Of a stretch of DNA of 64,000 nt, positions 47,738-49,477 are shown in pieces; position 1 is the first letter of the stretch, and the number at the start of each line of letters is the position of its first letter. Source of the stretch: a virus; IMG/VR virus record IMGVR_UViG_3300032293_000766, positions 71,212 through 135,211 of that record; one strand, 5' to 3'. The notes below the pieces were generated by a model, which was not told the origin of the DNA, made no database searches, and saw only the letters and a list, made by a program, of their open reading frames with translations. Made by a program: the position numbers and the translations under genes.

Positions 47738-48664
47738 TTAAAAGACTGTATTTATAGTCCAGTTTACTTTTCGTGGTGGAAAACCATCAACGTCGCTAAA
47801 TACCCAAGAGCCATTACCGGAAAGCATTTCTGCTGCATCTTTTTCTCTAATCCAAAAGCTGCCATCTGGTTGATCATGTCTTTTAGGGCCATTATTCCAA
47901 ATTCCCCATGAATTTTGCACCAAGAATAAAGTTTCTTTGTAAATCTCATGAGTATCGTCCATGCCTACCCAAGCCATCGCGTGCGCCCAAGACCCAGAGC
48001 GTGAAGCTATACCATGCTTATCTCTGCGACTAGAAAAGCCAGACATAGAACATACACTAATACCATAACCATTAGCAATAGCATCTCTTGCTTGTTCTAT
48101 TGTGCTAATGAGTGAGATTGTTTTTACTGGATTCTTTTTTGCTTCATTAATTAATTCTTGTGGAATTCCAGTTCTACCCCATTTACCCCCAATGCCAGAG
48201 TATGTAGATAGGTCTATATCTCCATATTCTTTACGTATTAATAATCCGCCCACTTTATTAACAAATCGTGCGGCTACAGAACATGACATTCCTTCTCCAC
48301 CATGACCTCTAGAGCCATAAATGGCTTCTACAGCACCCCTAGCGATAAATTCTTCTCTATCCCCATCAACTATTTCGCAAGAGCGCGTTACATCTACAGC
48401 GTTTCGTGTAGCATGGGAGACACAATCACCTTGAACTTGTTTTTCAGATGGTCCAAAATTAGGATCAAATGTTAACAAGTTTTTGAATGGTAGAGATAAT
48501 TTACCCTTTCCACTTCCATAAAGATTATATGCAGCAGCACCAAATAATGGATGTGGAAGTTCTCCTAAAAGCTTATCTGTATCCTTGGGATCACACCATG
48601 AACCCATGAACCCTTCACGATAAGCTTTTAAAAGATCGCTTGGCTTATTAAACTCATTAGACAT
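47738..48664 (-). CDS. papain-like (C1) cysteine peptidase
   Basis: QVQGDCVSHA (Gln/Cys), WAHAMAWVG (His), LVQNSWG (Asn). Confidence 0.85.
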   Translation of the reverse strand: MSNEFNKPSDLLKAYREGFMGSWCDPKDTDKLLGELPHPLFGAAAYNLYGSGKGKLSLPFKNLLTFDPNFGPSEKQVQGDCVSHATRNAVDVTRSCEIVDGDREEFIARGAVEAIYGSRGHGGEGMSCSVAARFVNKVGGLLIRKEYGDIDLSTYSGIGGKWGRTGIPQELINEAKKNPVKTISLISTIEQARDAIANGYGISVCSMSGFSSRRDKHGIASRSGSWAHAMAWVGMDDTHEIYKETLFLVQNSWGIWNNGPKRHDQPDGSFWIREKDAAEMLSGNGSWVFSDVDGFPPRKVNWTINTVF

Positions 48665-48884
48665 TTTTCACCGGACTTACTGGACCTACTGGGCCTTTAA
48701 TCCACTTAATAATACTATCTAAAACTAGTGTTACGATTGGAACTAGCAATACGCCAGTTGAACCCCAATCAATAGTATTAACATTTTCCATTATGTATGT
48801 TAAAAGCGATCCTGCACCAACAAGTAGTGCATTTTTTCCTAAGTTAATTAAATCGTTTACATCTAAAGAAAATCTTTGTGACAT
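48657..48884 (-). CDS. holin-like two-TM protein
   Basis: 75 aa, two hydrophobic helices, basic C-terminus, overlaps the peptidase gene. Confidence 0.55.
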   Translation of the reverse strand: MSQRFSLDVNDLINLGKNALLVGAGSLLTYIMENVNTIDWGSTGVLLVPIVTLVLDSIIKWIKGPVGPVSPVKNV

Positions 48885-48895
48885 TGTAATACCTC

Positions 48896-49477
48896 TTATG
48901 TTTCGGATACGCTGACTAAAAACCCACCATGCTCTTCATCACTAATTTTATATGGATAACCAATTAGTCTTAACTGTTTTCCATCTGAAGTACGTGTTAC
49001 TTTATTAAACCTTCTATTCATTTCTATACAAGATTTAAATTCTTGTAACACACTACTTCTATCTTCTTCATTTACTATATTTATCCAATCGTATCCCTCT
49101 AAGAATAGATTACTGTCACCTATAAACTTATGAAGATGAATATTATTCCATATTAATCTTCCTTCGTTATCTGTTTCAAACAATGCTACTTCATTATAGT
49201 GCATAGAAGCTCTTGTTCTTTGCTCTATAATTCTCTGTCTTCTATCTATTACTTTACATATTTTTTTGAGTTCGATAATAGAATCTTTTAGACTATTACC
49301 ACCATTGGTCATTAATTCTTTACGTAATTCTTTTACTGATTCCGTAAAGAGATCTTGATTGTTGACCAGTTTTAGTACAGGTCTAAGAAATTTTATCCAT
49401 AGTAAACTACCAAATGTGAATAGTCCACCTATGATACTTATAAAAATGGTTATATATTCTGGGTCAAAATGGAACAT
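48896..49477 (-). CDS. membrane-anchored PAS-domain protein
   Basis: N-terminal TM, coiled coil with NGGNSLKD, then ALFETDNEGRLIWNN...GYDWINIVNEEDR PAS motifs. Confidence 0.75.
   Translation of the reverse strand: MFHFDPEYITIFISIIGGLFTFGSLLWIKFLRPVLKLVNNQDLFTESVKELRKELMTNGGNSLKDSIIELKKICKVIDRRQRIIEQRTRASMHYNEVALFETDNEGRLIWNNIHLHKFIGDSNLFLEGYDWINIVNEEDRSSVLQEFKSCIEMNRRFNKVTRTSDGKQLRLIGYPYKISDEEHGGFLVSVSET

Follow-up and report, generated by a model that had tools for sequence, protein, structure and literature searches.

A papain-fold peptidase gene among small membrane-protein genes of an uncultured lake phage: a candidate lysis-type module

Introduction

Canonical holin-endolysin cassettes are those of phage lambda (S-R-Rz/Rz1) and of phage 21, the latter with its class II holin S21. 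Lysis can also be timed by accessory proteins acting via the holin. The T4 antiholins RI and RIII have this role, and RIII is reported to be cytoplasmic (PMC8385771). Among papain-like enzymes, the accessible sections of a review list a peptidoglycan role for CHAP, NlpC/P60, and Amidase_5 (PMC10318531). Here, we describe a phage locus that resembles such cassettes in its layout and differs from them in its enzyme. The locus lies within "the window," by which we mean the whole 64-kb stretch analyzed, i.e., the final 64 kb of a viral record in IMG/VR (IMGVR_UViG_3300032293_000766; 135,211 bp, judged 85% complete; G000 below). Three consecutive genes on its minus strand form the trio under study: PAS193 (48896..49477; 193 amino acids [aa]), with a transmembrane (TM) helix, a long helix, and a terminal PAS domain; TM75 (48657..48884; 75 aa), with two hydrophobic helices and a basic C-terminus; and PEP308 (47738..48664; 308 aa), a predicted papain-family (C1) cysteine hydrolase. 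We propose that the region is a lysis-type module with the C1 peptidase as its lytic enzyme. This is the best of the readings that we weighed, and we give it a probability of about 45%.

Results

An initial annotation of the window had read the trio as a sensor-gated lysis cassette, and its three gene positions agree exactly with the open reading frame (ORF) list. By that list, 11 nt separate PAS193 from TM75, and the end of TM75 runs 8 nt into PEP308. Because homologs exist for all three genes (1497 for PEP308 in a 90%-identity collection, 147 for PAS193, and 25 for TM75), these are not chance ORFs. Contigs of 160-167 kb occur among the PEP308 and PAS193 homologs. The source lineage is an uncultured lake phage; a search for sequencing runs listed 20 DNA rows from 12 studies, mostly labelled freshwater or lake, and no RNA row.

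PEP308 itself has no match in Pfam (E ≤ 0.1), PHROGs, or a PDB sequence search (E ≤ 10). A 76%-identical relative (P0071) scores 25.1 bits against Pfam Peptidase_C1 (PF00112; cut-off, 20.7 bits), and PF00112 is found on 12% of the members of one Atlas cluster. We modelled PEP308 with AlphaFold (AF2), using 59 diverse relatives as input (predicted local distance difference test [pLDDT], 92.5). In the model, the fold is the two-domain one of papain, and the central helix begins at the catalytic Cys. Foldseek returned 242 PDB matches at E ≤ 1e-3, headed by xylellain (E 6e-10) and followed by procathepsins, and VIA-align placed the model on xylellain with a Z of 21.6 and a root-mean-square deviation of 2.8 over 231 residues. 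Altogether, 327 of 776 re-aligned chains reached Z ≥ 8; the 50 entries listed are papain-family peptidases. Across the 59 relatives, Cys81, His228, and Trp253 are each kept in 59/59 and Gln76 in 58/59, while Asn251 is kept in 53/59 (Gln in five and His in one). The papain-fold model and this conservation bear out the annotated C1 cysteine peptidase with intact Cys/His/Asn. Judged from the model, PEP308 is a confident papain (C1) fold with a complete conserved catalytic set, and we propose from fold and residues together that it is an active papain-family cysteine hydrolase.

Mature papain aligns with residues 53-292 of the PEP308 model, and alignments with zymogens reach residues 6-7. Hence, the first ~50 residues correspond in position to a prosegment's end. 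The maximum hydropathy over 15 residues is 1.17, with no signal peptide and no TM segment. Having no hydrophobic segment, PEP308 would be made in the cytoplasm without an export signal and would need help to leave it. The family is wide, with 1488 representatives at 50% identity for E ≤ 1e-3 and 258 for E ≤ 1e-30. A tblastn search of PEP308 against 50,697 cultured-phage records gave no match, and none was found in IMG/VR for the distant relative P0306. Among predicted viral structures, the C1-like fold occurs in phage proteins fused to domains named peptidoglycan-binding or muramidase.

Inserts lengthen many PEP308 relatives to 440-1040 aa. Pfam Intein_splicing, Hint, and LAGLIDADG all match in P0245, P0248, and P0259, and LAGLIDADG only in P0241 and P0270. 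We read 40 long relatives by hand. The insert lies between Asp80 and Cys81 in ~22 of the 40, with His-Asn as the last two intein residues and the catalytic Cys in the +1 position; it follows His228 directly in ~14, and it stands just before the Asn251-Ser-Trp segment in 3. Two or three of these inserts are combined in 5/40, and a 97%-identical relative (L009:4765-6001) has a ~1-kb insert after about residue 76. Inteins tend to sit at the catalytic motifs of conserved, essential enzymes. The sites fit an active PEP308 enzyme under strong selection and say nothing about its substrate; whatever the function, inteins at each of three catalytic residues are a natural marker of the residues that matter.

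TM75 has a strongly hydrophobic stretch at residues 45-59 (Kyte-Doolittle 2.59), a Lys-rich basic tail after it, and a weaker Ala/Gly-rich stretch at about residues 19-33 (~1.5 by hand calculation). It has the size and topology of a holin, being a small membrane protein that has one TM segment or more and ends in a charged tail. We call it holin-like because of size, topology, and position. As for the 75-aa holin-like, two-TM protein of the initial annotation, the two hydrophobic helices are there, but comparison with holin families gave no match (0/28 in Pfam and 0/28 in PHROGs). The annotated adjacency of a small membrane gene and the peptidase gene is a regular feature: the TM75 stop lies -4 to +22 nt from the PEP308 start in 24/26 distinct relatives of this arrangement.

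To place the trio in its genomic context, we compared 80 related IMG/VR loci, some of which are near-copies (66 different sequences among 78 tree rows). PEP308 is present in 80/80 loci (62-97% identity), a 353-aa glycosyltransferase in 73, a 129-aa membrane protein in 65, a sigma-like gene and a 156-aa membrane protein in 58 each, an 83-aa membrane protein in 46, TM75 in 34, and PAS193 in 33. The loci fall into two arrangements. In arrangement A (34 loci, all 34 collinear), the order is glycosyltransferase, two small genes, sigma, a 213-aa gene, PAS193, TM75, and PEP308; 33 of the 34 TM75 loci also have PAS193. Both genes are absent from the other 46 loci, in which the glycosyltransferase abuts PEP308 in 41/46. 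There, the genes for the 129-aa protein and for TM58, a two-TM protein of 57-78 aa, come next after PEP308, and then those for the 83-aa and 156-aa proteins. Beyond them are sigma, a 213-aa-like gene, and the genes for TMCC (a TM coiled-coil protein) and for a soluble protein of 56-62 aa; sigma is downstream of PEP308 in 28/28 of these loci that have it. TM58 occurs in 44/46 of the other loci and TMCC in 18/46, each is found in 0/34 loci of arrangement A, and TM58 is nowhere in the present record. Examples of the sister arrangement (among L013-L081) are L020:7418-7594 and L020:11251-11571.

Two genes downstream of PEP308, the sister clade has a holin-like TM58 gene. TM58 matches only holin-annotated PHROGs (phrog_297, 5/16 members; phrog_9987, 4/16; phrog_4712, 1/16; best E 4.4e-4). 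The models also match at the TM58 gene of G001 and G002, both of which have the other arrangement; in the arrangement-A records G000, G006, and G007, they match nowhere. The pairs TM75/PAS193 and TM58/TMCC were never found together. For the small proteins TM75 and TM58, such exclusion is what non-orthologous replacement of one function would give. We also asked whether the members of the two pairs are related. A relationship of TM75 to TM58 was rejected (hhalign probability 0.3%), as was one of PAS193 to its positional counterpart TMCC (0.1%).

The trio is conserved over a wide span (PEP308 down to 64% identity), yet it is not co-conserved with the peptidase. The co-conservation that the initial annotation named as a check fails on two counts: PAS193 and TM75 accompany PEP308 in only 33-34/80 loci, and neither occurs in a related 138.5-kb record (88% complete) with the other arrangement, in which a PAS-family profile that matches in four arrangement-A records finds nothing. 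In a quick maximum-likelihood tree of PEP308 (leaving out L004 and L009, which are partial matches, and L028, which has an internal stop), the arrangement-A loci make up two clades and the remaining loci one. This tree has at least three changes of arrangement, two of them forced by well-supported branches.

We then searched for other lytic enzymes. No canonical peptidoglycan hydrolase family of Pfam was found among the 120 predicted proteins of the full 135-kb record, with cut-offs of E ≤ 1e-4 for most proteins, 1e-3 for the giant proteins described below, and 0.1 for ten neighbors. The annotated lack of a muramidase or amidase in the window thus extends to the rest of the record. Within PEP308, there is no lysozyme, amidase, SLT, M23, CHAP, NlpC/P60, or M15 match. 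Six-frame searches of G000, G001, G006, G007, and G008 found no Phage_lysozyme, Amidase_2, SLT, CHAP, or Peptidase_M15_4, with positive controls matched; the G008 bin also has no NlpC/P60 match. A canonical holin-endolysin pair elsewhere was looked for, and no canonical lysin was detected. G008 is a 1.4-Mb bin labelled SAR202 that contains locus L094 and a 152.6-kb arrangement-A contig. Its PAS gene is on two different contigs, and the bin may be largely mis-binned phage DNA.

We suggest that the trio would form a compact unit, in an uncultured aquatic lineage of tailed phages of ~135-165 kb, within a larger envelope or lysis-type module. PEP308 would be made in the cytoplasm with a short built-in prosegment. 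Its most likely role as lytic enzyme would be to cut peptide bonds of the envelope, in either peptidoglycan stem peptides or envelope proteins. It would reach this substrate through a hole formed by a small two-helix membrane protein, which would be TM75 here and the holin-resembling TM58 in the sister clade. PAS193 may modulate the module, as its position suggests.

The main rival takes PEP308 for a conserved intracellular, non-lytic protease that might process phage proteins (e.g., giant structural ones), cleave a host factor during takeover, or counter a defence system, with PAS193 and TM75 as unrelated membrane accessories. Here the layout of the genome matters. The plus-strand arm holds the structural genes, including a T4-type terminase, a Clp protease, and tail and fibre proteins; seven of its proteins are giants of 1317-3828 aa with fn3, LamG, RCC1, and FG-GAP repeats and a minor-tail domain. 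The minus-strand arm, which holds the trio, carries replication, nucleotide-metabolism, and glycosyltransferase genes (25 of its 27 Pfam families were listed; the remaining two are weak). A non-lytic role would suit this location, the very high conservation of PEP308 in the 80 loci, the width of its family, the inteins at all three catalytic residues in relatives, and the lack of an export signal; the prosegment-like N-terminus suggests regulated activation, and PAS193 and TM75 are dispensable in 46/80 loci. It sits less well with the embedding of PEP308 among small membrane proteins in both arrangements, the holin-like gene near it in the other arrangement, and the failure to find another lytic enzyme. 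In addition, the phage already has a prohead protease of the ClpP type and a trypsin-like protease. We consider this rival somewhat unlikely.

A more specific idea, that PEP308 is the prohead protease, was rejected. The Clp protease lies in the structural block and PEP308 in the other genome arm, and with a ClpP-type protease in that block, PEP308 is not needed for this task. One protein within window positions 35399-63913 (minus strand) matches Pfam Trypsin (E 6.7e-13). Counting PEP308, this protein, and the Clp protease among the structural genes, the phage has three or more proteases.

PAS193 has 147 homologs, all from contigs of one kind; several already bear the name PAS protein in their source, and PF13426 is precomputed on 4 of the 120 relatives listed. 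Its first ~30 residues are hydrophobic, with a TM helix at about residues 8-30. In the AlphaFold model (pLDDT 82.8), a single long helix (6-93) precedes a PAS core of five strands (98-192; strands 98-102, 108-111, 157-162, 168-177, and 183-192, with helices between). Foldseek returned 256 PDB matches at E ≤ 1e-3, and all 37 listed are PAS/LOV-type domains. The PAS call in the initial annotation is thus supported by the predicted fold, while Pfam gives only sub-threshold scores (PAS_9, 14.1 bits against 27; PAS_3, 13.7 against 25.6). The annotated architecture of TM, helix, NGGNSLKD, and a stand-alone PAS domain is confirmed. The motif is residues 58-65 (TNGGNSLKD, 57-65), and the PAS domain is C-terminal (about residues 95-193); with nothing after it, PAS193 has no output domain. 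By the positive-inside rule, the N-terminus is probably outside and the helix and PAS domain cytoplasmic.

In an alignment of 58 family members, NGGNSLKD is near-invariant and residues 54-65 and 81-94 are almost invariant. Invariant polar residues are many in the PAS core and juxtamembrane segment, which suggests a cofactor or partner. The NGGNSLKD segment belongs to no family in Pfam or PHROGs, and an Atlas search with residues 1-95 gave no usable match. In the PDB sequence search, the only match is a 35-residue stretch of 3ewk ("Sensor protein"; E 0.006), and no cofactor motif could be assigned. We considered a LOV-type photosensor: Cys150 is invariant, yet no LOV entry aligned by sequence. 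A complex prediction of PAS193 with TM75 scored 0.00 against a mark of 0.32 and gives no verdict.

Could PAS193 act like an antiholin, sensing light, redox state, or a ligand, gating a TM75 holin, and so timing the release of PEP308? Several features would fit. PAS193 is in 33/34 TM75 loci, and neither gene is in the other 46; the two genes are closely spaced in a unit bounded by a conserved hairpin (below); the PAS core and juxtamembrane segment hold invariant polar residues; and the PAS domain would be cytoplasmic, as is reported for the T4 antiholin RIII (PMC8385771). Against this, no sequence or profile links PAS193 to any antiholin or holin, no cofactor motif is assignable, the co-occurrence rests on ~3 tree events, and the literature sections at hand held no link of a PAS domain to phage lysis control. 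Moreover, in the other arrangement, the slot of PAS193 after sigma and the 213-aa gene is held by the unrelated TMCC, far from PEP308. This shared slot makes the sigma/213-aa pair, not the peptidase, the conserved neighbor of PAS193. What ties PAS193 to lysis timing is its position, and the PAS-timed lysis of the initial annotation is, in our view, distinctly unlikely.

The sigma-factor-like gene (157 aa; PHROG sigma factor, E 2e-7) and the 213-aa gene (together 49531..50721, minus strand) precede PAS193. Between the 213-aa gene and PAS193 lies a GC-rich, terminator-like hairpin (49497..49516, minus strand), which marks the upstream edge of the trio unit. Its sequence is unique in the window. 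A strong hairpin occupies the same place in 27/27 distinct related intergenic regions; the stems differ, and several have T-runs after them. The window copy has no T-run and for that reason is not listed in the consensus terminator scan. Scans for consensus promoters (34 against 44 expected) and terminators (3 against 3.8) were at or below chance in number. The hairpin sets the trio apart from the sigma/213-aa unit. Expression of the trio probably depends on read-through or on a promoter that our scans did not recognise, and the hairpin points to an upstream gene that is highly expressed or separately terminated.

A further sequence, GTGTATWWT, precedes five genes at a distance of 26-46 nt (G000:C1 12110, 15158, 27624, 85496, and 134113, with window positions 14285 and 62902 among them); four of these genes are on the plus (structural) strand. 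A near-copy lies 72 nt upstream of the 213-aa gene. The genome-wide count of GTGTATWWT equals chance (13 against 13.0), and we note it as a weak candidate for a phage promoter element.

The same neighborhood raises another rival, in which PAS193 is a membrane-tethered sigma regulator (anti-sigma-like or a co-regulator) in late transcription and has no connection with the peptidase. The two arrangements indeed share the order sigma, 213-aa gene, TM coiled-coil protein, whatever the position of this block with respect to PEP308. However, the hairpin separates PAS193 from the sigma/213-aa unit in 27/27 regions, and the trio is tightly packed; Pfam detects no anti-sigma domain in PAS193; and its positional counterpart TMCC is non-homologous. 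We give this possibility the least credence of all.

A scan of species-representative genomes gave 25 loci with PEP308 relatives. Eight of them (46-66% identity) are on contigs of metagenome-assembled genomes (MAGs) from discordant bins: Flavobacteriales, SAR202, Dehalococcoidia, and an archaeal bin. Because the bin labels of related contigs disagree, they say nothing about the host. Two of the eight loci (L094 and L096) have phage gene orders, and we take the remaining ones to be mis-binned phage too. Ten loci (34-44% identity) are in Planctomycetota MAGs, one of them prophage-like and, by reading, beside a recombinase-like ORF. At 35-42% identity, loci in two Mucilaginibacter isolates (L110 and L111) and on a Balneolaceae chromosome (L107) have neighbors that look chromosomal and non-phage, their identities being read from ORF starts only.

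These relatives bear on a reading in which the module remodels the envelope. PEP308, the glycosyltransferase, and the membrane proteins would act on a surface glycoconjugate or glycoprotein, e.g., in superinfection exclusion or receptor masking. No neighbor of PEP308 is more constant than the glycosyltransferase (73/80 loci; abutting in 41/46), many further glycosyltransferases are encoded by the phage, and the Mucilaginibacter relatives follow a many-TM protein and putative GT2-like and deacetylase-like ORFs. The last point is tempered by how these neighbors were identified, from ORF starts with no family library scan. PEP308 lacks an export signal, and remodelling would leave the phage without any lytic enzyme. 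We regard this reading as quite improbable.

The remaining neighbors lie downstream of PEP308. A 67-aa ORF (47522..47725, minus strand), 12 nt from PEP308, is poorly conserved (9/80 loci). The single-pass membrane proteins of 129, 83, and 156 aa (44661..45761, minus strand) follow PEP308 in both arrangements. The 129-aa protein (45372-45761) has an N-terminal TM helix, a Pro-rich linker, and an invariant motif rich in Cys and His, DPDPxKCxCxGxGxIxxGDGHxTxCPYH, which resembles a small metal-binding domain. We considered the 129-aa and 156-aa proteins as spanins and rejected the idea, as a 51-sequence alignment has no conserved lipobox Cys. A 582-aa Ser/Thr/Gly/Asn-rich protein (45761-47509, minus strand) lies between the 67-aa and 129-aa genes. 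It is present in only 3/80 related loci (28-78% identity); this hypervariable insert is perhaps a receptor-binding or surface protein. On a distant phage contig (PEP308 at 52% identity), PEP308 stands between tail-fibre-like genes and a run of small-membrane-protein genes.

Discussion

We favor a lysis-type module with PEP308 as its lytic enzyme. From the initial annotation, this keeps the domain calls and the lack of a detectable lysin and drops the PAS timing; the trio is not co-conserved with the peptidase, and TM75 matches no holin family. New here are two pairs of membrane proteins that exclude each other, the matches of TM58 to holin PHROGs, the three intein sites, the hairpin, and the cellular relatives.

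A number of observations weigh against our preference, and they concern the enzyme, its partners, and the search for alternatives. First, C1 peptidases are not an established class of peptidoglycan hydrolases, as far as the accessible sections of PMC10318531 go. The conservation of PEP308 is about that of ribonucleotide reductase (62-97% against 66-99%), which is unusual for endolysins. The gene is in the replication/nucleotide-metabolism arm, not beside structural genes, and its most frequent neighbor is the glycosyltransferase. The Mucilaginibacter relatives (35-38% identity) sit in seemingly non-phage chromosomal settings, after a many-TM protein and putative GT2-like and polysaccharide-deacetylase-like ORFs. 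Second, TM75 matches no holin family and is unrelated to TM58, and the holin matches of TM58 are weak, none being better than E 4e-4 or covering more than 5/16 members. With ~3 arrangement changes in the tree, mutual exclusivity may reflect descent rather than function. Third, at only 85% completeness, the record may lack a stretch that encodes a lysin, and Pfam at E ≤ 1e-4 misses novel lysin folds. Two sub-threshold matches also deserve mention. One is to Peptidase_M23 in G008 (18.3 against 28.7 bits). The other is to NlpC/P60 (13.8 against 23 bits; G000:C1:29993-30199) in a 589-aa protein of the structural block, outside the window. A PDB sequence search with this protein gave nothing relevant, and reading it showed no obvious Cys/His motif; the match might be a tail-associated wall-degrading domain or noise.

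If the C1 peptidase is lytic, it would add a new catalytic class to the phage lysins and explain how a large global group of uncultured lake and ocean phages without recognisable endolysins leaves its hosts. If PAS193 times lysis, the phage would sense before lysis, and our literature search showed no earlier case of a PAS protein linked to phage lysis. In the portions of the literature available to us, we found no C1-family phage lysin, no account of this phage lineage, and no PAS domain in lysis control. At its boldest, the picture would be one of glycosidase- and amidase-free lysis in widespread aquatic phages, with a zymogen-like papain protease, a new two-helix holin, and, in one clade, a PAS timer responding to redox, energy, or light; we see only a slim chance of this whole combination. 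The mutually exclusive membrane-protein pairs offer a clean comparative handle.

How does the locus compare with known systems? PEP308 shares the two-domain fold and the Gln/Cys/His/Asn/Trp set with xylellain (PDB 3OIS) and other C1A peptidases (procathepsins and pro-Der p 1), and its N-terminal extension aligns with the C-terminal part of the prosegments of C1A zymogens. It differs from them in its low identity (13-18% in the top ten VIA-align rows), in lacking a Pfam Peptidase_C1 match and a signal peptide, and in being phage-encoded among small membrane proteins. CHAP, NlpC/P60, and Amidase_5 are likewise Cys-His hydrolases of the papain-like superfamily, which, in the sections available of PMC10318531, act on peptide or amide bonds of peptidoglycan; they are minimal alpha+beta domains, whereas PEP308 has the full C1 architecture with the Asn-Ser-Trp segment. 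The putative timing role of PAS193 would liken it to the accessory lysis timers RI and RIII of T4, to which it has no homology. We know of no PAS domain in RI or RIII.

Set beside the lambda and phage 21 cassettes, the trio differs in that PEP308 is a C1 peptidase and not a muramidase, transglycosylase, amidase, or known endopeptidase; that TM75 is in no holin family; and that no spanin-like lipoprotein was found, the 129-aa family having no conserved lipobox Cys. The locus shares with those cassettes a gene for a small two-helix membrane protein translationally coupled to the gene for a cytoplasmic hydrolase, more small membrane proteins nearby, and the lack of any other detectable lysin.

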